Positions 7,807-49,407 of a stretch of 64,000 bases of DNA are shown piece by piece. The stretch is from Candidatus Hermodarchaeota archaeon. GTDB lineage: Archaea > Asgardarchaeota > Heimdallarchaeia > Hodarchaeales > Hodarchaeaceae. A program made the position numbers and the translations under genes. Location: contig JBHLKY010000007.1 in the NCBI GenBank assembly GCA_048886185.1, forward strand, positions 99,092-163,091, read 5' to 3'. Each line of letters starts with the position of its first letter. Position 1 is the stretch's first letter. The notes below the pieces were generated by a model that ran no database searches, was not told where the DNA came from, and saw only the letters and a list, made by a program, of their open reading frames with translations.

Positions 7807-9255
7807 GTGGTAAAATTGTCAACACAATTATTAGAATGGATTGATAGAAATCGAGATCAGTTCATTACAATTAGTAACCGAATCTGGAATTTAGCTGAAC
7901 TTGGATTATTTGAAACAGAATCCTCAGAATTATTAGCATGTAATCTCGAAGAAGCTGGTTTTACTGTCAAACGGGGGATTGCAGATATGCCAACAGCCTT
8001 TGTGGCTAGCTATGGGACTGAAGATCCTATCATAGCCATACTAGGAGAATTTGATGCATTACCAGGGCTTAGTCAAGTGGTGGAACCAGTCAAGAAGCCC
8101 CTTGAAGAAGGTAAACCTGGACATGGTTGTGGTCACAACCTATATGGTGCAGCTTGTCTGGCAGCATGTTTGGCTGTCAAAGAGGCAATTGAATCAGGAG
8201 AAGTAGTAGGAACCATTCGATTCTATGGGTGTCCCGCCGAGGAAAATGCGGATGGAAAAGGGTGGATGATAAATGCTGGTGCATTCGATGATGTTCATAT
8301 TTCACTGACATGGCACCCTTGGGACATTAATTTTGTAATGGCAAATAACTTCCAAGCGATGTACAATGTTACTTTCCAGTTTAAAGGGCAAACAGCTCAT
8401 GCTGCGGGGGATCCGTTCAATGGAAGATCTGCTCTTGATGCTGTAGAGTTAATGAACGTTGGATGTAACTATCTTCGGGAGCACATGATTCCTGATGCTC
8501 GCGTTCACTATGTTATAACAAAAGGAGGTCAGGCACCTAATATTGTACCTGATGAAGCTGAGGTATGGTATTTTGTTAGAGGGCCGAGGATTGCAGATGT
8601 TAAAGCTCTATATTCAAGGGTGCTTAATGTTGCGGAGGGGGCGGCTTTAATGACAGAAACCAAAGTTACTGTAACTCTCCTTGGTGGTTCAGCAAATCTC
8701 TTACTTAACGAAACATTAGAAAATTTGTTACATGAGAAAATGATTGAAATTGGGCCACCTAAATATTCTGAAGACGAGTTCGTATTTGCCAAACGAATTC
8801 GTGAGTCTTTTCCTGAAAATTATTTTGATAACACACTGGCCGTCCTCCCTCAAGATGCCAAACCTTTCTTAGAGCGATTTAGAAATATGGTGTTTTGTGA
8901 TACCGTTATTCCGATTTTTGGTAGAGGTATTACCCTTGGTGGATCAACTGATGTTGGTGATGTCTCTTGGATTACTCCATTGGCGCAATTTGCCACTGTA
9001 TGCGGGGCAATTGGAACTCCTGGTCACTCATGGCAAGCAGTTGCACAAAATGGTATGAGTATTGGACACAAAGGGATGATATATGCTGCAAAAATTCTTG
9101 GACTTGCATCGTTAGAGCTAATGCGAAAGCCAGAGTTGGTTGATAAAGCGAGAAAAGAGTTTGAAGAGAAGATCAAGAAAACTCCATTTGAGAGTCCCTT
9201 ACCTGAGGGTGCTAAACCTCCTATTGAATATTACAGAAGATTGTATAAGCAATGA
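7807..9255 (+). CDS. M20 family metallo-amidohydrolase (AbgB/aminobenzoyl-glutamate utilization-like)
   Basis: 482 aa. It has the HGCGHNLYG metal-binding motif and the acidic ..PAEE.. and dimerisation regions typical of M20D. GTG start. Confidence 0.75.
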   Translation: MVKLSTQLLEWIDRNRDQFITISNRIWNLAELGLFETESSELLACNLEEAGFTVKRGIADMPTAFVASYGTEDPIIAILGEFDALPGLSQVVEPVKKPLEEGKPGHGCGHNLYGAACLAACLAVKEAIESGEVVGTIRFYGCPAEENADGKGWMINAGAFDDVHISLTWHPWDINFVMANNFQAMYNVTFQFKGQTAHAAGDPFNGRSALDAVELMNVGCNYLREHMIPDARVHYVITKGGQAPNIVPDEAEVWYFVRGPRIADVKALYSRVLNVAEGAALMTETKVTVTLLGGSANLLLNETLENLLHEKMIEIGPPKYSEDEFVFAKRIRESFPENYFDNTLAVLPQDAKPFLERFRNMVFCDTVIPIFGRGITLGGSTDVGDVSWITPLAQFATVCGAIGTPGHSWQAVAQNGMSIGHKGMIYAAKILGLASLELMRKPELVDKARKEFEEKIKKTPFESPLPEGAKPPIEYYRRLYKQ

Positions 9256-9334
9256 TACATTGAGTTTTTTTTGAGCAGAAACTTCAAGAAGTAACTTTTT
9301 AATAGAGCTCCACCCCTTATTGTAGGAATGAGTC

Positions 9335-9943
9335 ATGGTTTCTAGTGATTATCTTAAACCAACCTTTTTTATTGACAGTAATTCCGACATTGTGACGGAA
9401 TTAGCACGAATGCTTTCCAAAGGAATAAGTAAGAAAGATGTGATAGCTATTAATACTTTTAACTTTGTAAGAGATGAAATCAAGTATACAATTGATATTA
9501 CCCAGTATCACACTCCTGAAGATATGAAAGCGAGTACGACTATTGAGCGAAAGATTGGTTTTTGTATCCCAAAATCAATTGCATTGGTCGCGCTTCTGCG
9601 TGCGAATGAAATTCCTGCCAGATTGCATTTTGCGGACATAATTAATCGTAGAATTCCATCACACTTACTAGAGCTCTTACAAACCAATGTTATGATATTC
9701 CATGGATATGCGGAAGTATTCCTTGGGAAATGGATAAAATTAACACCTTCTTTTCAGACTCCACTTTGTGAACGTCATAATTTCCCGGTTTGCTTCTTTG
9801 ATGGGAGGAATGATGCTACTTTCAAACCATTTGATAATGATGGAAATCCATTTGTAGAGTACATAAATGATAGAGGGGTTTATGCTGATCTTCCATACGA
9901 TGAAATCTTCACTGCTTTCCGTGAGTATTACGGATATCTCTGA
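9335..9943 (+). CDS. transglutaminase-like cysteine protease domain protein
   Basis: 202 aa. GFCIPKSIALVALLRANEIPAR (Cys) followed by FHGYAEVF (His) follows the Cys-His-Asp order of the transglutaminase-like core. Confidence 0.55.
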   Translation: MVSSDYLKPTFFIDSNSDIVTELARMLSKGISKKDVIAINTFNFVRDEIKYTIDITQYHTPEDMKASTTIERKIGFCIPKSIALVALLRANEIPARLHFADIINRRIPSHLLELLQTNVMIFHGYAEVFLGKWIKLTPSFQTPLCERHNFPVCFFDGRNDATFKPFDNDGNPFVEYINDRGVYADLPYDEIFTAFREYYGYL

Positions 9944-10232
9944 TATAAGAATAACATTTCTAATTCTTTTTGTTTTCTAAGCATTTTATGTCTGGAATGG
10001 AAAAGTTTAACCTCTGTACTTGAAATAATAGACTATCTTGAGAGAAAAAGGAAATTAATTTTGGTAAGATTTAAAAGCAATAAAAATCTCCAGAATCTCT
10101 TTTGAATACAAAGATTAATGGTAATCTTTGAGAGATGAAATCTATGAGAAGGGATTGAGGGAAGATTGATAAATATCAGAGAGGAAATATAATTATAGCA
10201 ATAATTATCACTAGAGATAAGAGGTTTTCTGA

Positions 10233-11936
10233 ATGAAAGATCCTGCAAAGGATGAAGAATTTAGGAGAAGAATGGAAGAATTACTTCCTTGCATGTTTGA
10301 TTATGTTGATCATTATGCAAAAGAAAAAGGTTCATCTCTCGCCCTCATTGAGTATGAGACGGGAGAAGAAGTGACTTGGAAAGATTTTGCCACAAAAACG
10401 AAGGCATTTGCAGCAAAATTACTTTCTATTGGATTGAAAAAAGGAGATATTGTAGCGACCTCTCTTCCCTTATTAAAAGAACATATCTTTTTAATGTACG
10501 CTTGTTATCGAATAGGAGTTATCATTGCTCCATTAGATCTAAGATTGAAAGCTCAAGAAATAAACCGTAATTTTGAGAAGATTAAGCCTAAAGTATATCT
10601 CTTTTTAGGAAAGACAGAAAATGTTGATTTTCGTCCTATTATTGCTGAAGTAATGAAAAACCATAAAAACACGTGTAAATACTGGGTACAGTTTCAACGT
10701 GAAGAAGACCTGATCATGGATGGAGCTGTGAGTATAACTGAGTTTGTCAAAGGTATTAAAGGAACATATGTTAAATCATTGATAACAAGAAGCGTTAAAA
10801 AAGCGCAGAACCAAATTGCTAAGAATGATCCCTGTTTAATTATCTTTACTACAGGTTCAACTGGTTTTCCTAAACCTGCCCTACTTTCTCATGAGAATAT
10901 TTTAGTACAAAATATTGGCCTTGCTTTAGGTTTTGGTATGGATGAGAATGACATAATGTGCGTTAATCTTCCTCCCAGTCATGTCGGATGCACCACAGAA
11001 CAATTAGCTACAACAATATACAGTGGGGGTATAAGTGTGATTCTACATATTTTTGATGCTGAGAAGACATTAGATGCAATTCAAAAATACAAAGTGACAG
11101 TACTTGGCCAAATTCCAGCCCTATTTGCAATGCAATGGCGTCTACCAAATTATAACGAATACGATTTATCCTCTTTGCGATTTGCCATCTATGGTGGGCA
11201 GGCTGTAACCCGCCCATTCCTTGAACAATTATCTACAATGGCTCCAGAGATGGGGAGTGGTTTTGGCTTAACTGAAAGTTCAGGTTTCATTACATATACT
11301 CCTCACGGTGGAACAGTTGATGATATTCTTGCTAGTATTGGTTATGCTTTTTCCGCTAGTCCCATATCAATTAGAGATTCTATGAAAGCAGATGGTTCCG
11401 CTGGTGATGAAAAGGCTCCTGGAGAAGTTGGAGAGATCTGCTTCTCTGGCCCCCAGGTATTTCTTGGGTATTTTGGTGATGAAGAAAACACAAAAAAGGT
11501 TATTTCTACTGATGGAATATGTTATTCGGGTGATCTGGGTTCTTATGACGATAGAGGGCTTCATTTTGCTGGAAGAGCTAAATTTATTATAAAACCAAAG
11601 GGATACAACGTTTTTCCAACAGAAGTCGAAGATTTTATTGAGCATTCATTCAAAGGGAAGGTTGGTACAGTTGCTTGTGTTGGTATCTCCCATGAGGTCT
11701 TTACAGAAGGAATAATGGCATTTGTCGAAGTAGTTGAAGGATCCACTGTCACCCTAATCCAATTGGAGGAAGCAATGAAGGATATTGCAGCTTATAAACG
11801 ACCAAGTCATTTTGAGATAATAAAAACAGGAGAAATTCCTCTAACGCGGATTGGTAAAACAGATTATATGATTTTGAAACAGAAGGGAGAGGAAATCGCC
11901 CAAAGACTACGATCTGAAGGAAAATGGGATTCCTAA
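10233..11936 (+). CDS. AMP-dependent synthetase/ligase (acyl-CoA synthetase, ANL superfamily)
   Basis: 567 aa. It has the IFTTGSTGFPKPALLSHENI AMP-binding motif. The SD site AGAGGT lies upstream of the ATG. Confidence 0.8.
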   Translation: MKDPAKDEEFRRRMEELLPCMFDYVDHYAKEKGSSLALIEYETGEEVTWKDFATKTKAFAAKLLSIGLKKGDIVATSLPLLKEHIFLMYACYRIGVIIAPLDLRLKAQEINRNFEKIKPKVYLFLGKTENVDFRPIIAEVMKNHKNTCKYWVQFQREEDLIMDGAVSITEFVKGIKGTYVKSLITRSVKKAQNQIAKNDPCLIIFTTGSTGFPKPALLSHENILVQNIGLALGFGMDENDIMCVNLPPSHVGCTTEQLATTIYSGGISVILHIFDAEKTLDAIQKYKVTVLGQIPALFAMQWRLPNYNEYDLSSLRFAIYGGQAVTRPFLEQLSTMAPEMGSGFGLTESSGFITYTPHGGTVDDILASIGYAFSASPISIRDSMKADGSAGDEKAPGEVGEICFSGPQVFLGYFGDEENTKKVISTDGICYSGDLGSYDDRGLHFAGRAKFIIKPKGYNVFPTEVEDFIEHSFKGKVGTVACVGISHEVFTEGIMAFVEVVEGSTVTLIQLEEAMKDIAAYKRPSHFEIIKTGEIPLTRIGKTDYMILKQKGEEIAQRLRSEGKWDS

Positions 11937-12092
11937 TTGTGTATCACCCACATCTTAGAACTTAATTCTATTTTCTTTTTTACAATTTAGAGAACTTATT
12001 TTCCAGAAGTCTATTATCAGATATGATCAACAATGTTATTATTCAATAATGAAATTGACATTACAGATACCTCAGCATAATGGTGACGCAAT

Positions 12093-12911
12093 GTGACCCC
12101 TGACATACTTCTATCCAACGATGATGGTATTTATTCAAGCGGAATTCGCTCATTCGCTTGTGCGATGCAGGAACGTAAATGGGATGTTACGATAATTGCT
12201 CCCCGTTCCCAGCGTTCTGCAGAAGGGAAAGCAATTACTTTCGATCAACCAGTGAGAATACAAGAGGTTCCATTATCTTACCTAAATGGGAAAGTTGGAT
12301 GGCGGACTACTGGTACTCCTGCTGATGCCGTGATTCATGGAGTCTATCAACGAGCGAATGGTGGTAAACCCCCCTTTGATCTAATTGTTTCTGGTATTAA
12401 TGCTGGAGAGAACACCAGTCTTCATTCTATTTTAACATCAGGAACCTGCGCGGTATCATTTGAAGCAGCTCTCCTTGGATTGCCAGCTATTGCGTTTTCT
12501 ATGGATGTGGACGAACGTCTCTTCTTTGATGATTTCGCTGATCCTCTTGGCATGAAAATTGCAGCAAACACTGCCTGTGACATAATGGAAAAAGTACTCA
12601 AAAATAATGGACTTCCTTCTGGTGTTAGATTTCTGAATGTTAATTTTCCTGATACAATTTCGGAAAGTACACCAATTCAAATTTGTCCGATGGCCATGAC
12701 AAAGTATCGTGATTATACAATTCGTCGTGAGGATCCTAGAGGAGTTCCTTATTATTGGATTTGGGGAGAAACGCTAGATATCCCCAAAAACACCGATGCT
12801 TATGCAGTACTGAAGAAAAAAGTCACAAGTATAACTCCTATTACATTTAATTTCGATGGTCGTGAAAATCCAGCTATTAACCAGTCTTTGAATTTCTTAA
12901 AGCGAGAATAG
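12093..12911 (+). CDS. surE: 5'/3'-nucleotidase SurE
   Basis: 272 aa. The N-terminal ILLSNDDGIYSSGI motif is the SurE signature. GTG start. Confidence 0.85.
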   Translation: MTPDILLSNDDGIYSSGIRSFACAMQERKWDVTIIAPRSQRSAEGKAITFDQPVRIQEVPLSYLNGKVGWRTTGTPADAVIHGVYQRANGGKPPFDLIVSGINAGENTSLHSILTSGTCAVSFEAALLGLPAIAFSMDVDERLFFDDFADPLGMKIAANTACDIMEKVLKNNGLPSGVRFLNVNFPDTISESTPIQICPMAMTKYRDYTIRREDPRGVPYYWIWGETLDIPKNTDAYAVLKKKVTSITPITFNFDGRENPAINQSLNFLKRE

Positions 12912-28022: not shown

Positions 28023-29465
28023 CTATTTTAAGTTATTAGCTGCAATTTTATCTAATTCATTTTTTAGGTTTTCATCAACAGCTTGTCTAGGTGGACGTTT
28101 GCTTAATTTAATAGCAATTTCTTTTGCTCTGTTACGAGCTGATGTTTCACCACCTTTCCTCCATTGATCACGGGTCTCTCTATTTATGATCTGTAAATTT
28201 TCAACTGTAAAAGGGAAATAAAGCTCTTTTCTGAATAAACTTAGCGTAGTTGGGTGAGATAGTAATGAAATATTAGCATCATAATCACTAAGAATATCTT
28301 GAGCAAATGGTACGCCATGATCTGTGATCCCTTGAAGAAGATGTTTAACCATTCCTGCGATTTCATTATCAATGATTAATTTCTCGAAGCTTTGAGTTGA
28401 TTCGAAATCCAGCATACCAGGCCCAGAAATCATATTGATTCCAGCGAGACCAGCTAGCAATGCCCCCATGCCTCCCTCAAATCCTGCTTGAGCATCAGGA
28501 ACTTTTGAGTCAGATAATGTCATATATGCATGTGTTGGTAGATTTAAGAACTTTCCCATTTGAGCATCTGCAATATTAATCATCATTGTCTCAATTGCCC
28601 CCATGGGGGTCGTTCCATTCCTCATATCAAATACTGCTGGAGATCCTCCCCATATAACAGGAGAATTTCTCTTGGCTAGTTGTGAAATTACAAGTCCTGC
28701 CAAAGATTCAGCGGTATGTTGAGTGACACAGCCAATTAAAGTTATAGGAGCTGTTGAACCTGCAAGAGGCATACTAATGAATTCTGATGGGATTCCGCTT
28801 CGTGCTGCGTCAATTACAGATTGAGTAGTTAGATTTGACCACATCAAGGGGGGACTTGGGCATGCATCAAAAATCGCCAAAGGTTTTTCAGCTAGTTTTT
28901 CCTTTGAAGTTCTTGTTGCCTCCAATAACTCTTGCATTATAGAAAAGCTTTCTATTCTAAAAGTGCCTGTAACAATCGGTTTGGAACAATTAATTAATGC
29001 GATGTACAAACGATGCCAATCTTGAGCATTATTAGGGACATCAGAACAAACAAGTGAGGTTGATTGAGCTGCAAAATTGGGTAGATGGTCCACAATTTTT
29101 GAAAACATTATGAAATCTGAAGATAATGCTTCTCGTATTGTCTTTGTTTCTAGATCTTGTACGAAAATTGCAGCAGATCCAGGATCAAAGTGAATATTAT
29201 CTTTTGAGAGCTGGATTACTTCTCTTCCTTCTCTATCATATAATTTGATTTCAGAGGGAGCGTTGGTGCGTAGCTTTTCAACTAGATCCTCTGGTATAAA
29301 GTACCTTAAATTTTTATAATGGATCCCTTCCTCCTGTAATAAGCTTTGAGCATCAGGATTTTCAATTATTACTCCTTGGTTGTGAAGAATAGCTTTAGCT
29401 TCATTGAATATCTTTTTCATGTATTCATTGGTCAATAATTCAGTTTTGGGTCTTAAAATTGTCAA
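28023..29465 (-). CDS. MttB-superfamily (trimethylamine methyltransferase-like) substrate:corrinoid methyltransferase, non-pyrrolysine type
   Basis: 480 aa. The N-terminus (YMKKIFNEAKAILHNQGVIIENPDAQSLL) and the overall length fit the MttB TIM-barrel. No in-frame TAG interrupts the frame. Confidence 0.75.
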   Translation of the reverse strand: MTILRPKTELLTNEYMKKIFNEAKAILHNQGVIIENPDAQSLLQEEGIHYKNLRYFIPEDLVEKLRTNAPSEIKLYDREGREVIQLSKDNIHFDPGSAAIFVQDLETKTIREALSSDFIMFSKIVDHLPNFAAQSTSLVCSDVPNNAQDWHRLYIALINCSKPIVTGTFRIESFSIMQELLEATRTSKEKLAEKPLAIFDACPSPPLMWSNLTTQSVIDAARSGIPSEFISMPLAGSTAPITLIGCVTQHTAESLAGLVISQLAKRNSPVIWGGSPAVFDMRNGTTPMGAIETMMINIADAQMGKFLNLPTHAYMTLSDSKVPDAQAGFEGGMGALLAGLAGINMISGPGMLDFESTQSFEKLIIDNEIAGMVKHLLQGITDHGVPFAQDILSDYDANISLLSHPTTLSLFRKELYFPFTVENLQIINRETRDQWRKGGETSARNRAKEIAIKLSKRPPRQAVDENLKNELDKIAANNLK

Positions 29466-29471
29466 AAACTA

Positions 29472-30359
29472 TCATCTTCCAGTAAGTTCGTCAATAATTT
29501 TGCGTAATAGGTTAATATGGTTTGGTTCAGTACCACAACATCCTCCAACAATTTGGCCATCATAATCAAGAATATGTTTGATATCTTCTGCAAATGTCTC
29601 AGGGGATTGTTTGTAGACTGATTTTCCATTTTCTAGTTTAGGACTGCCAGCGTTTGGTTTTATTGAAAGTGGGATATCTGGAGCAGCAGCTCTCATAGTT
29701 TTTATCAGCTCAAGAAAATCATTACTACTAAGAGTGCAGTTCGCTCCAACAACAGTTACTCCTGAATCAATTAATTCAGAGACACAGTCAAAAACAGTGT
29801 TTCCCATAATAGTAAAGAATCCCCTTGGGGTTCTTTGATAAGTCATACTAGCAATAATAGGTTTGTCTGATTCAGTTTGAATAGCTAATATTGCTGCTTT
29901 CATCTCTCGGATATCAGAGAATGTTTCAATGTGCCACGCATCAATATAGGGTGCGAGCGCTTGTGCTTGCAACTGAAAGCTCTGTTTTAAATCATCAATA
30001 GATATCTTACCTACTGGCGGAAGGAATTCTCCAGAAGGGCCAATATCACCTATCACGCACCTTCCTGGAGGACAGACACTTCTTAATATTTCAGCTGAGC
30101 TTTTATTAATGTCTTTGAGTAGGTTTTGAATACCATAGTTTTGTAAAGCAATATTATTTGCTCTAAAAGTAGCAGTTTGAACCAGATCGCTCCCCGCTTT
30201 GTAATATTGATCAAAAACTTCTTTAATATCATTAGGACGATCTAAATTCCATTTATCAGGAGCTTCTCCTGGTTTTAATCCTCGACGAATTAATTCGGTA
30301 CCCATAGCTCCATCAAACAGAAGAATTTTCTTTTCGCGTAATAAGGAGAGAAAATCCAC
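29472..30359 (-). CDS. homocysteine S-methyltransferase domain protein (MetH N-terminal module-like, zinc-dependent thiol methyltransferase)
   Basis: 295 aa. LLFDGAMGTELIRRGL resembles MetH LILDGAMGT. A Cys is followed by IVGGCCGTEPNHI, the Zn-binding GGCCGT motif. Confidence 0.8.
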   Translation of the reverse strand: MDFLSLLREKKILLFDGAMGTELIRRGLKPGEAPDKWNLDRPNDIKEVFDQYYKAGSDLVQTATFRANNIALQNYGIQNLLKDINKSSAEILRSVCPPGRCVIGDIGPSGEFLPPVGKISIDDLKQSFQLQAQALAPYIDAWHIETFSDIREMKAAILAIQTESDKPIIASMTYQRTPRGFFTIMGNTVFDCVSELIDSGVTVVGANCTLSSNDFLELIKTMRAAAPDIPLSIKPNAGSPKLENGKSVYKQSPETFAEDIKHILDYDGQIVGGCCGTEPNHINLLRKIIDELTGR

Positions 30360-30380: not shown

Positions 30381-31034
30381 TTATTCAAGACCTAGTAACT
30401 GTATAGCTAATGTAACTGCAGCTACTGCATTTTCAGCATAACCATCTGCACGACACTCGTCTACCCACTTTGATGTAACAGGAGCACCTCCTAGCATTAC
30501 CTTGAATTTATTACGAATGCCCTGTTCTTCGAGTAACTCAATAATTTTCTTTTGTCCTATCATTGTAGTAGTCAGTAGAGCAGATACACCAATAAGATCA
30601 GCTTGCTGCTTTTCTGCCTCTGCGATAATGGTTTCAGCTTTCACATCTGCCCCTAGGTCAATTACATCAAATCCATTAGCTTTTAACATTGTGGAGACTA
30701 TTGTTTTTCCAATGGTATGAATATCACCCTCAATTGTGGCCATAACAACCTTACCTTTCGTCTTTCTTTCCCCAGAACCTTCCATATGGGGCGTAATAAT
30801 ATCGACAGCTTCTTGCATCACTTGCGCACCTCGCATAAGTTCTGGAAGAAAGAATTCACCTGCATCCCATAAATCACCAACTTTTTTGATGCCATTACCA
30901 AAGCCTTTTTCAATTACTTCAAGCAATGGGAGGTTTTCGTCTAAAGCTTTTTGTGCAAGGCTTTTTGCTTTGTCCATATCAAGTTCCACAACACTATTAG
31001 CCATCTCTTCGTAGATTGGTTCCATTCTAAACAC
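30381..31034 (-). CDS. cobalamin-binding corrinoid protein (MtmC/MttC/MtgC-like)
   Basis: 217 aa. It has an N-terminal helical cap and a Rossmann-like domain with the GDIHTIGK (DxHxxG) His-on B12 ligand motif and ...S.L..G. Confidence 0.8.
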   Translation of the reverse strand: MFRMEPIYEEMANSVVELDMDKAKSLAQKALDENLPLLEVIEKGFGNGIKKVGDLWDAGEFFLPELMRGAQVMQEAVDIITPHMEGSGERKTKGKVVMATIEGDIHTIGKTIVSTMLKANGFDVIDLGADVKAETIIAEAEKQQADLIGVSALLTTTMIGQKKIIELLEEQGIRNKFKVMLGGAPVTSKWVDECRADGYAENAVAAVTLAIQLLGLE

Positions 31035-46773: not shown

Positions 46774-47379
46774 TCAGAGGAAAGCCATCAACTGTTCACT
46801 AGTATGGTCATCAATATACTTTTCAGTACGATAGACTTTTTTTGTCGTGACTGTGTAAAGAGCTCCTGTTGGTGTTACTTTTTCGTCAATTGCTTTTAAA
46901 ACGCTAATTATCTCTTCTTCACTTGGCCAGTGAGCCCATTCAAACGCATAATCAAATTCTCCGATAAGAATAGAGGACTTTAGTGTATCCAATGTATTTG
47001 TGGGTTCCATTTCCTGAATTACTTGCTCAATAGCACGAACAGCTTTTGAAAGACTTGGCCCATGAATTCGTATGAAAGAAAAAATTGTATGATGTGCTTG
47101 TTTTCCCATTTCTGCTGTTACTCGGTTAGTGTGGCGACTTTCAGATGTTATAGAATACTTTGTTGGTAAACCAGTTAGAGTATCATCAATTTTCTCTAAC
47201 AACGTGAATATTTGCTGATGTTTCGGATCCTCAATCCAGTGAAATACAAAATCATATCTTCCAAATGTAACTTCCCCTCTAGAAAGAGGAAGCTCAGATT
47301 TAATAGTATCAACAAGGTTCGATAACCGATCAAGGGCTTGTGGAATTTGTGGGCCATAAAGTCGAACATTAGACTTCAT
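46774..47379 (-). CDS. hypothetical protein with internal tandem duplication of an about 85-aa domain
   Basis: The start is at the ATG at 47379, with an SD site GAGGT 9 nt upstream. The two halves align as R.YGPQIPQALDRL...GEVTFGRYDFVFHWIEDP...LLEKIDDTLTGLPTKYSITS and RIHGPSLSKAVRAI...GEFDYAFEWAHWPS...VLKAIDEKVTPTGALYTVTT. Confidence 0.45.
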   Translation of the reverse strand: MKSNVRLYGPQIPQALDRLSNLVDTIKSELPLSRGEVTFGRYDFVFHWIEDPKHQQIFTLLEKIDDTLTGLPTKYSITSESRHTNRVTAEMGKQAHHTIFSFIRIHGPSLSKAVRAIEQVIQEMEPTNTLDTLKSSILIGEFDYAFEWAHWPSEEEIISVLKAIDEKVTPTGALYTVTTKKVYRTEKYIDDHTSEQLMAFL

Positions 47380-47721: not shown

Positions 47722-49407
47722 ATGGCGGATATTAAAGCTATAGCCTCCTTCATACCTCAAAATAGGCTCTCTATTGAAGAGTTGGTCGATAGCTATCACA
47801 GTTTATCTACCCTGAATTATAAGGTTGCCTTACGAAAGCTCAAACAAACAGTTAATCGCTTTCGTGGGAAGACTTTGCGTAGTGTTCGTTGGGTATATAA
47901 TCAACGGTTAATGCTTCGAGAAAAGGTTGTTCCAGGTCCTAATGAGGATGCACTAACTGCTGGCACTCAATCGTTAATATATGCTATACGTCGTGCAGAT
48001 ATTTCTCCGGATGAAATTGACGCGTTATTTGTTGTTTCAGAATCTTATCCCTATGCTGTAAAATCAAGTACCGCTATTGCGGGAAAAGCTGGTTTAACTG
48101 ATCTAAAGTATGGTGTTCGTGGAGAATTTGCCTGCAAACCCTTCGGGGAGTTTCTCGATATTGCAGCTGCACTTATTGATTCTGGGAGGTGTAGGTATGT
48201 TGCTGTTACTGCAACAGACGCTAGTCAAGGTGCTCCAGGGGATGATCTAGAATTTTCAGCATCTTTCTATTCTACTAGTATTATTCTTGGGAAAGAAAAG
48301 GGTATTGCTGAGATCAAAGGACGGACATCCATTAATTATGATTTTTCAGATTTTATAAGGAAAGAGGGAGAAGAATTTCCTGAGCATGAGGGTCAGGGTA
48401 CCTCACTAGCGTTCCGAGGAATGATCCTTTCTACATTAAAGAAACATCTAGAACGCTTTCCAGAAATGGATACTAGTTGTCTTTCAAGAAAGACTTGGGT
48501 AATTCATTCTCCCAATGGTAGTTTTCCTAATGAGGCATTATTAGATATTGGGAACCATTTTGGAGTTACTTTAGCTGAAAAAGTCTTTGATGATGATGGT
48601 ACTTTGCTAGGGATTGAACCTAGGGTTAATGTCTCAAATTTAGCTCCTGATATTGCTAATGGTTATTCTGCAACTGTACCAACCGCATTATGCAATGCTA
48701 TGGAAAATGCGAAAAAAGGTGAAGAGATTATGGCTGTTCTTTACGGTTCAGGAGCAGGATCGGACGTAATTAGCATTAAACTTAAAGCAAATGGATCACA
48801 AGTGGCTAATAATGGAGTTCCCACAGTACAGGAGCAGATAGACTATAAACAAAAAATCACTGTTGACGACTATTTCCGCTTTCGTGATAGTCCAGATCAA
48901 GTAGCGAGAAATATAGCTTTGCTCGAAGTAGACCCAATATCCAAAGAATATTATCAGATGGAGGGGTGTCCTGAATGTGGTGCTGTGTACTTTGGTGATA
49001 GTTGGACCAAGGGGAACTTCCCTGATTTTTCTCCTCCTGAAAAATTTGACGAGTTAGAAGGTCGATGTTTACGTGGGATTCAGAAAAGAGCTGGCGATCC
49101 TAAAAAAATATGTGGAGCCAAATTAAAACAGGTGAAAATTCCTAAAAGGGCAAAAATTAGAAATGTACACTATTATGCTCCTTCAAAAAAGTCCCCTGGC
49201 CATCCTGAAAACCCTTATTGGGCAATGTTTGATCAAAAGTATGTTAGGGGTTTTAATTACAATCCAAAAGTCTGTAGTTTTGCTGAAGGAGAGGAAGTAA
49301 AAGCAGTTATTGGTCGTTGGCGTCCTGCACCGAAAGGATGGGTACCAATATTATATGTTCCTATGTATACTCATCTAAGGCGAGATTACCAACAATCATC
49401 AAATTAA
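47722..49407 (+). CDS. HMG-CoA synthase-like thiolase-fold condensing enzyme fused to a C-terminal zinc-ribbon (DUF35-like) extension
   Basis: 561 aa. VPGPNEDALTAG, VSESYPYAVKSS, EFACKPFGE and TDASQGAPGDDLEFSAS closely match archaeal HMGCS catalytic regions, as does HSPNGSFP. The C-terminal about 190 aa carry CPECG...C..C. Confidence 0.7.
   Translation: MADIKAIASFIPQNRLSIEELVDSYHSLSTLNYKVALRKLKQTVNRFRGKTLRSVRWVYNQRLMLREKVVPGPNEDALTAGTQSLIYAIRRADISPDEIDALFVVSESYPYAVKSSTAIAGKAGLTDLKYGVRGEFACKPFGEFLDIAAALIDSGRCRYVAVTATDASQGAPGDDLEFSASFYSTSIILGKEKGIAEIKGRTSINYDFSDFIRKEGEEFPEHEGQGTSLAFRGMILSTLKKHLERFPEMDTSCLSRKTWVIHSPNGSFPNEALLDIGNHFGVTLAEKVFDDDGTLLGIEPRVNVSNLAPDIANGYSATVPTALCNAMENAKKGEEIMAVLYGSGAGSDVISIKLKANGSQVANNGVPTVQEQIDYKQKITVDDYFRFRDSPDQVARNIALLEVDPISKEYYQMEGCPECGAVYFGDSWTKGNFPDFSPPEKFDELEGRCLRGIQKRAGDPKKICGAKLKQVKIPKRAKIRNVHYYAPSKKSPGHPENPYWAMFDQKYVRGFNYNPKVCSFAEGEEVKAVIGRWRPAPKGWVPILYVPMYTHLRRDYQQSSN

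Follow-up and report, generated by a model that had tools for sequence, protein, structure and literature searches.

A candidate single-chain HMG-CoA synthase with a fused, strongly diverged DUF35-like module in Hodarchaeales archaea

Results

The locus and its 561-aa product

We analysed a 64-kb stretch of DNA (the window; GC content ~35%) from a Candidatus Hermodarchaeota archaeon that GTDB places in the Hodarchaeales (GenBank assembly GCA_048886185.1, contig JBHLKY010000007.1, positions 99,092 to 163,091 of the forward strand). At 47722..49407 (+) the window carries an open reading frame (ORF) that begins with ATG and encodes a protein of 561 aa plus a stop codon, exactly as delimited in a first-pass annotation made from the sequence alone. 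The product appears to combine an archaeal-type 3-hydroxy-3-methylglutaryl-CoA (HMG-CoA) synthase (HMGCS) domain with a C-terminal DUF35-like module in one chain, both of them strongly diverged, and it is probably a working HMGCS. It is identical to the NCBI entry 'hypothetical protein ACFFB2_08795' (P0001 in our numbering) from a metagenome-assembled genome (MAG) of a Promethearchaeota (Asgard) archaeon, GCA_048941095.1. The coordinates of all features are collected in Table 1.

The N-terminal part is an archaeal-type HMG-CoA synthase domain

As judged by sequence comparison, residues ~1-396 are an archaeal-type HMGCS domain that has diverged strongly. Among the NCBIfam models the archaeal HMGCS equivalogs NF003274 (1.7e-57) and TIGR00748 (2.3e-51) were far ahead (residues 60-389), with FabH, PhlA-like and eukaryotic models scoring far more weakly. 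The best match in the PDB was 6esq_I, the HMGCS of M. thermolithotrophicus (E=1.1e-41; query residues 61-388 against chain residues 36-344), followed by a second tier of PhlA/MucA-type proteins (9e-18 and 2e-14). A relationship to the eukaryotic or bacterial HMGCS was considered and rejected, the values being E=0.015 for TIGR01833 and E~0.45 for PDB entries of the 5hwo type.

By counting along the alignment to 6esq_I, E107, C138, H262 and N313 were found to correspond to E82, C114, H238 and N270 of that chain. This E-C-H-N tetrad does not vary among 18 family members and is also kept in P0074, a distant relative that is 30% identical. When the tetrad is mutated in the archaeal complex, HMG-CoA is no longer formed (PMC12960953, which is also the source of the tetrad numbering). 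The first-pass annotation had described an HMGCS-like N-terminal enzyme with its Cys in EFACK, Glu in SESYPY and His in HSPNG; these residues are indeed conserved and aligned to their counterparts in 6esq_I, in a domain that scores below the equivalog cut-offs.

Alignment with 13 HMGCS of the canonical archaeal type revealed an N-terminal insertion of ~27 aa (residues 26-48 and 56-59), in good agreement with the ~30 aa initially reported, as well as a second insertion (277-280 and 286-300) that the first reading had missed. The distant lineage P0074/P0078 has a still longer insertion at the same N-terminal site, and the 15-aa part of the second insertion is specific to the Hodarchaeales family. 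A full-length AlphaFold2 (AF2) model built from 18 close orthologues reached a predicted local distance difference test (pLDDT) score of 59.5, which was too poor to add anything.

The C-terminal part resembles DUF35

The first-pass annotation had placed ~190 additional residues after a core of ~370 aa. The extension is real, and since the HMGCS core reaches residue ~396, it comprises ~165 aa. Similarly, the reported CPECG motif is present (C416, C419), whereas the C-x-C motif is not, as C449 and C464 are isolated residues. The ribbon-like region is ordered as a beta-hairpin, C416-x2-C419, a VYF strand, an insert of ~25 aa with a helix, C449 and C464. All four cysteines, i.e., C416, C419, C449 (GRCLRG) and C464 (KICG), are invariant in 44 sequences, including the distant P0074/P0078, and may bind zinc.

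The Pfam DUF35 models PF01796 and PF12172 gave no match to either the full protein or its C-terminal 191 aa, even at E<=10, and an NCBIfam scan of the same 191 aa returned nothing relevant. In a control, Pfam recognized a genuine DUF35 from an Asgard operon (1e-21 and 8e-14) as well as P0233, a canonical-type HMGCS-DUF35 fusion. When 1.84 billion representatives were searched exhaustively with a profile of the module, the matches were its own family, one fragment, the distant P0074 and some noise from repeat proteins, with no stand-alone DUF35 amongst them; by sequence, the module is almost an orphan. The Pfam search had been proposed in the first-pass annotation, where a lack of DUF35 or OB-fold similarity was to count against a fusion. 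Taken at face value the result points that way, but it was reversed by the more sensitive comparisons described below.

Using hhalign, a C-terminal alignment of 44 sequences was compared with 68 DUF35 genes from HMGCS-thiolase-DUF35 operons. The two were colinear over 98 columns with a score of 28.0 (P=6.5e-4), at a probability of only 28%. This score exceeded those of all 200 column shuffles (200/200; mean 13.8, standard deviation 2.7, maximum 23.3; z~5.3) and that of a reversed control (17.7). In the resulting pairing, the first CxxC of DUF35 was matched by C416/C419 and its second Cys pair by C449 and C464, with VYF on VYF, PPE on PPR, L..V.IPKRAKI on L..l.lP..G.v and G.EVKAV on GM.VEAV.

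An AF2 model of residues 396-561, again from 44 sequences, was of better quality (pLDDT 78; predicted template modelling score 0.70) and contained a hairpin/Zn-knuckle region followed by a five-stranded barrel. The top Foldseek matches of this model were the DUF35 subunits 7pxp, 6esq_E/F/G, 7pyt, 9vbt, 9skh and 5m3k, and by two structure-comparison methods the DUF35 chains of five different thiolase-type complexes ranked first. Thus the predicted OB barrel lies directly after the ribbon and is similar in structure to solved DUF35 proteins. Finally, the profile of the 561-aa family aligned colinearly, from one end to the other, with P0233 (473 columns, E=7.8e-46), a 496-aa protein from a 10.6-kb contig of a JGI metagenome whose canonical-type HMGCS is 71% identical to the Odin-like P0054.

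The hhalign, AF2 and Foldseek scores are each weak on their own, but the agreement between them is not. Taken together, the comparisons and the structural model support the view that residues ~397-561 constitute a strongly diverged DUF35, in which a putative four-Cys ribbon enlarged by two insertions is followed by an OB barrel. From the hhalign result, the AF2/Foldseek matches and the colinearity with P0233, we infer that HMGCS and DUF35 are fused here, that the two halves have strongly diverged and that the ribbon has gained ~25 residues. The fused DUF35-like module of the first-pass annotation is thereby borne out, and it would appear that the DUF35 models of Pfam overlook diverged members.

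Family, conservation and copy number

The protein belongs to a family of ~50 clusters (at 90% identity), whose members are 556-569 aa in length and 71-87% identical to it. The labelled clusters derive nearly all from Hodarchaeales, Hodarchaeota or Heimdallarchaeota MAGs, and include the closed 3.16-Mb genome CP070760.1. Some MAGs with family members are labelled Thorarchaeota or Hermodarchaeota. The family has been sequenced in NCBI, JGI, ENA and Logan assemblies, with the ORF uninterrupted throughout; its members are annotated as HMG-CoA synthase by JGI and as 'hypothetical protein' by NCBI. Searches of the literature turned up no account of the family or of an HMGS from Hodarchaeales.

The distant lineage P0074/P0078 is 30% identical over the full length (P0074, 547 aa) and has the same architecture, i.e., the N-terminal insertion site, the tetrad and the C-terminal motif series, which in common form reads CPxC...YFG..W...GKCxRGI...KIC...RWRP...YxPMY. 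This shared architecture indicates that the fusion is older than the Hodarchaeales family. Between genomes, the 561-aa protein was 86, 73 and 85% identical, as compared with 70 and 57% for the neighbouring Fpg and 69% for the neighbouring M24 peptidase, indicative of strong purifying selection.

The gene is mostly single-copy in verified genomes, with two or three copies in some bins that are possibly mixed. Two MAGs, with the locus-tag prefixes ACFFAJ (P0208/P0048) and ACFE8U (P0040/P0214/P0216), each harbour two or three different members, which suggests either mixed bins of several Hodarchaeales populations or true duplicates within a genome. A partial copy of 418 aa, P0209 (UCE08501.1, JSW07_10955), is at least 90% identical to P0040 and lies on a 5,215,025-bp contig labelled 'bacterium'; either the contig is an Asgard chromosome under a wrong label, or the copy was transferred or has decayed.

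Canonical HMGCS operons in similarly labelled assemblies

A canonical HMGCS was not found in verified Hodarchaeales genomes among the matches listed by word-filtered homology searches, which did not include a whole-genome scan. The canonical HMGCS-thiolase-DUF35 operon is present in MAGs labelled Hodarchaeota or Promethearchaeota. The HMGCS labelled 'Candidatus Hodarchaeota' (P0054) is closest to Odinarchaeia (74-78%), and canonical-operon loci have a GC content of 42%, as compared with 35% for the loci of the 561-aa gene. In addition, the assemblies with the canonical operon (JBHLKU, JBHLPJ, JBHLKL) are disjoint from those with the 561-aa gene (JBHLNX, JBHLRO, JBHLKP, CP070760, RDOB01, JAEOUP01). 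A further HMGCS labelled 'Candidatus Hodarchaeaceae' (P0253, on contig L099) is 99% identical to a Hadesarchaea protein, and its label probably reflects a mix-up of Hod- and Hadarchaeaceae; in this group, the labels of public MAG proteins are no reliable guide to taxonomy. On the basis of the Odin-like identity, the GC gap, the disjoint assemblies and the label mix-up, we argue that the canonical-operon MAGs do not carry the 561-aa gene. A genome-contig scan with P0054 returned no Heimdall-group genome among the 600 stretches listed, and by cluster membership and proximity of NCBI accession numbers, the closest pair of a canonical and a 561-aa gene was located in different assemblies.

Gene neighbourhood

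By tblastn with thiolase, DUF35 and canonical HMGCS queries, no further gene of these kinds was detected in the window, confirming the earlier remark that it contains no thiolase gene. Likewise, across eight genomic contexts, no thiolase, DUF35, HMG-CoA reductase or lipid gene adjoined the 561-aa gene within 2-9 kb. The gene is usually preceded by a spacer of 280-700 bp, and its only recurrent neighbours are an Fpg/Nei gene nearby and, in some genomes, a divergently transcribed gene of ~205 aa. An upstream leader or regulatory element was considered and rejected, as the longest blocks that the spacers of close relatives have in common measure ~20 nt.

Directly upstream in the window lies a divergently transcribed 201-aa gene. 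Its orthologue in the most divergent Hodarchaeales relative (contig L101, 7852..8469, -) is 59% identical and occupies the same position, and the gene is absent from that position in three genomes (L006, L007, L009). A link between this gene and the synthase is putative.

Table 1. Features of the 561-aa gene and its upstream neighbour (window coordinates).
Feature	Coordinates	Strand	Basis or remark
Complete ORF, HMGCS-type condensing enzyme with putative fused DUF35-like module	47722..49407	+	561 aa, identical to P0001
Residues 1-396, archaeal-type HMG-CoA synthase (thiolase-superfamily) domain, by sequence comparison	47722..48909	+	NF003274, TIGR00748, 6esq_I
Residues 26-59, lineage-specific basic N-terminal insertion	47797..47898	+	Inserted columns 26-48, 56-59
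Glu107 codon (SESYPY), predicted catalytic base, E82 of 6esq HMGCS	48040..48042	+	
Cys138 codon (EFACK), predicted acetyl-accepting nucleophile, C114	48133..48135	+	
His262 codon (HSPNG), H238	48505..48507	+	
Residues 277-300, second insertion (277-280 and 286-300)	48550..48621	+	Alignment to 13 canonical HMGCS
Asn313 codon (ANGYS), N270	48658..48660	+	
Residues 398-466, expanded four-Cys zinc-ribbon-like region	48913..49119	+	Invariant Cys, AF2 model, hhalign
Residues 467-553, OB-like five-stranded barrel (predicted), basic overall	49120..49380	+	Strands 469-474, 476-485, 508-510, 525-533, 544-551
Divergently transcribed gene, 201 aa, without Pfam family	46774..47379	-	Syntenic with the 561-aa gene in some relatives

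Other observations in the window and in related contigs

A match to Rfam PYLIS_3, the pyrrolysine insertion element of mttB (28418..28517, -; 51.3 bits, gathering score 38), was located within an ORF of 480 aa belonging to the MttB family (28023..29465, -). As this ORF is uninterrupted and has no in-frame TAG, it is taken to encode a non-pyrrolysine methyltransferase of the MttB superfamily, and the PYLIS_3 match probably reflects similarity of the coding sequence. The neighbouring genes at 29472..30359 (-) and 30381..31034 (-) are, from the look of their sequences, candidates for a methyltransferase-like and a B12/corrinoid-binding protein. ARAGORN detected no tRNA or tmRNA genes in the whole window. 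An unrelated JGI contig (L100) contains a four-gene HMG-CoA reductase-HMGCS-thiolase-DUF35 cluster at 8566..12679 (+), in the vicinity of genes for GGDEF/response-regulator proteins and for an Arf/Ras-like GTPase.

Discussion

Interpretation and alternatives

We propose, with a probability of roughly 0.6, that the 561-aa protein is a competent HMGCS-type enzyme whose fused, diverged DUF35 recruits a separately encoded thiolase, and that it is probably the working HMGCS of the Hodarchaeales. The latter point, i.e., that it is the working enzyme rather than an accessory copy, we consider somewhat the more probable; it is possibly even the only HMGCS of the clade. The mechanism that follows is drawn from the established mechanism of HMGCS and the 6ESQ complex (PMC12960953; Voegeli 2018 as cited there). 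Acetyl-CoA would acetylate Cys138, Glu107 would take a proton from the acetyl methyl group to yield an enolate, and the enolate would attack the 3-keto group of acetoacetyl-CoA, held by His262 and Asn313. Hydrolysis would then release what is presumably HMG-CoA into the mevalonate pathway. In the canonical complex, DUF35 acts as a non-catalytic clamp that holds the thiolase against the synthase, and by way of a shared CoA site the favourable synthase reaction draws the unfavourable thiolase reaction forward (PMC12960953). By analogy, the most likely role of the C-terminal module would be to tether a thiolase encoded elsewhere, such that acetoacetyl-CoA could be channelled.

A number of findings weigh against this proposal. 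The protein reaches 195 bits where one curated equivalog model asks for 244, and 175 bits where the other asks for 353, and it is 31-35% identical to canonical archaeal HMGCS that are themselves 62-77% identical across phyla, a long-branch pattern that is typical of a change in function. Changes are also seen in several motifs that otherwise hardly vary (PDFWRR to SDFIRK, FHQPNGKF to IHSPNGSF, GNTYS to ANGYS, AVKPT to AVKSS). The second Cys pair of the module is C-x14-C and not the CxxC of the DUF35 ribbon. The gene is solitary in all eight contexts, whereas the canonical enzyme is encoded in an HMGCS-thiolase-DUF35 operon. Finally, the absence of a canonical HMGCS from Hodarchaeales genomes rests on the matches listed by word-filtered searches, not on a whole-genome scan.

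Many of these findings would also fit a neofunctionalised paralogue that exists beside a canonical HMGCS-thiolase-DUF35 operon and uses its acetyl-Cys/Glu/His chemistry for another condensation or acyl transfer. Such a protein might act on a different beta-ketoacyl-CoA acceptor, catalyse a reaction of the beta-branching type, or have a role alongside one of the several Asgard thiolase/DUF35 pairs implicated in fatty-acid metabolism. The sub-threshold scores, an identity of ~33% to enzymes that are otherwise >60% conserved, the two insertions, the altered substrate-proximal motifs and the solitary context all favour this explanation, as do the 3.8 thiolase/DUF35 pairs found on average in Asgard genomes (bioRxiv 10.1101/2024.07.05.601840) and the existence of HMGS/ACAT/DUF35 complexes that have been repurposed (PMC12960953). 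All of the repurposed cases, i.e., PhlA, MucA and Pf HMGS-DUF35, nevertheless lack the E-C-H-N tetrad (PMC12960953), which is invariant in the 561-aa family. Moreover, no canonical copy was found among the matches listed for verified carrier genomes, most of these genomes have a single copy of the gene, and the constraint on it is stronger than that on neighbouring housekeeping genes. We therefore regard a paralogue as the most serious alternative, albeit an unlikely one.

It is conceivable, though unlikely, that the Hodarchaeales dropped the near-universal three-gene archaeal thiolase/HMGCS/DUF35 module in favour of a fast-evolved single chain, in which the remodelled Zn-ribbon/OB unit, with its two insertions and basic surface, and a basic helix in the N-terminal insertion confer a new partner, localisation or product. 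Were this the case, the entry into isoprenoid synthesis, or some other acyl-CoA condensation, would be organised unlike that of any characterised archaeon.

It seems improbable that the C-terminal module is an unrelated or re-purposed Zn-ribbon/OB unit with another partner, such as a nucleic acid, a membrane or a regulator, and with a lineage-specific regulatory or moonlighting role. The silence of the Pfam DUF35 models, the near-orphan status of the module amongst 1.84 billion representatives and the remodelling of the ribbon by two insertions would be consistent with such a role. MCM N-terminal OB/Zn domains also appear in the Foldseek list, and the DUF35-fold protein Trf (6htj) has been described as a nucleic-acid-binding translation factor. 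Against this, DUF35 chains from thiolase-type complexes outranked everything else by both structure methods, the profile score stood well above the shuffles, and the protein is colinear with P0233, an HMGCS fusion whose DUF35 part is certified by Pfam. Although the module is basic, with an isoelectric point of 9.3 and K/R-rich loops, a genuine DUF35 of the same clade type is similarly so (8.7).

Lastly, the notion that an HMGCS gene and a small Zn-ribbon gene were joined by a sequencing or assembly error, or that the ORF is a decaying pseudogene, has only the unusual length and the NCBI annotation in its favour and can be rejected with near certainty, as an intact ORF of 556-569 aa recurs in ~50 clusters from many independent assemblies, including a closed genome, and family-wide identity in the C-terminal part is 61-81%, where 18 columns are invariant; the gene is real and the fusion no artefact.

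The mevalonate pathway, and with it the making of archaeal membrane lipids, has HMG-CoA synthase as its committed entry step, and coupling to a thiolase via DUF35 is regarded as a general archaeal answer to an unfavourable first step. The Hodarchaeales, which are currently placed nearest to eukaryotes, are central to debates on the transition from archaeal to eukaryotic lipids. The mevalonate pathway of this order is reported to be a mosaic (PMC11052028). Should the 561-aa protein be their sole HMGCS, reconstructions of the pathway based on equivalog cut-offs would miss an enzyme that NCBI calls a 'hypothetical protein', and the fusion would represent a natural experiment in rewiring the thiolase/HMGCS/DUF35 machine. 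Should it be a paralogue, none of the repurposed HMGS-type enzymes with which it is compared here (PhlA, MucA and Pf HMGS-DUF35) would have kept the tetrad before it. Either way, it is a concrete and testable protein.

Comparison with known systems

The closest solved relative of the catalytic domain is found in 6ESQ, the thiolase/HMGCS/DUF35 complex of M. thermolithotrophicus (1.1e-41), with which the protein shares an identical E-C-H-N tetrad and whose DUF35 chains are matched by its C-terminal module. In that system HMGCS and DUF35 are separate proteins encoded in an operon with the thiolase, whereas here they would be fused and the gene stands alone. Furthermore, the catalytic domain of the 561-aa protein shares only ~33% identity with canonical archaeal HMGCS and bears two insertions, and its ribbon, of the form C-x2-C...C-x14-C with ~25 extra residues, lies beyond the reach of the Pfam models.

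Single-chain fusions of DUF35 and HMGCS-type domains occur in both orders, with DUF35 at the C-terminus in P0233 and at the N-terminus in P0065, P0067 and P0070. P0233 presents the same order in one ORF, i.e., HMGCS, a short linker, Zn ribbon and OB, but both of its halves are canonical (PF12172 9e-15, PF01796 3e-22), whereas both halves of the 561-aa protein are long-branched and Pfam detects no DUF35. In P0065 and the Helarchaeota proteins P0067/P0070, a DUF35-type ribbon and an HMGCS-like domain likewise share one chain, so that such proteins occur in Asgard as well as in other archaea; there, DUF35 comes first and the catalytic domains are 27-33% identical to the 561-aa protein. Over most of their length, P0067/P0070 are not recognised by Pfam.

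The PfACAT/HMGS-DUF35 complex of Pseudomonas fluorescens contains a natural HMGS-DUF35 fusion that has been characterised and whose thiolase partner is a protein of its own (PMC12960953). The HMGS domain of this fusion has lost the tetrad and is inactive, and the complex only cleaves acetoacetyl-CoA (PMC12960953), while the tetrad of the 561-aa protein is intact; the Pseudomonas genes are clustered with that for ACAT, in contrast to the 561-aa gene, which no thiolase gene adjoins. PhlA and MucA (subunits of the acyltransferases PhlABC and MucABC; 5M3K, 9SKH, 9VBT) are the second-tier matches of the catalytic domain and belong to complexes that also comprise thiolase-like and DUF35 partner subunits. 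These proteins, too, have lost the tetrad and are non-catalytic (PMC12960953), and its retention sets the 561-aa protein apart from the PhlA/MucA type. HMGS-DUF35 fusions as such are thus already known. What is new is a clade-wide, highly diverged C-terminal fusion that keeps the tetrad, with a DUF35 half that escapes Pfam and an HMGCS half that lies under the equivalog cut-offs, in the archaeal order closest to eukaryotes.

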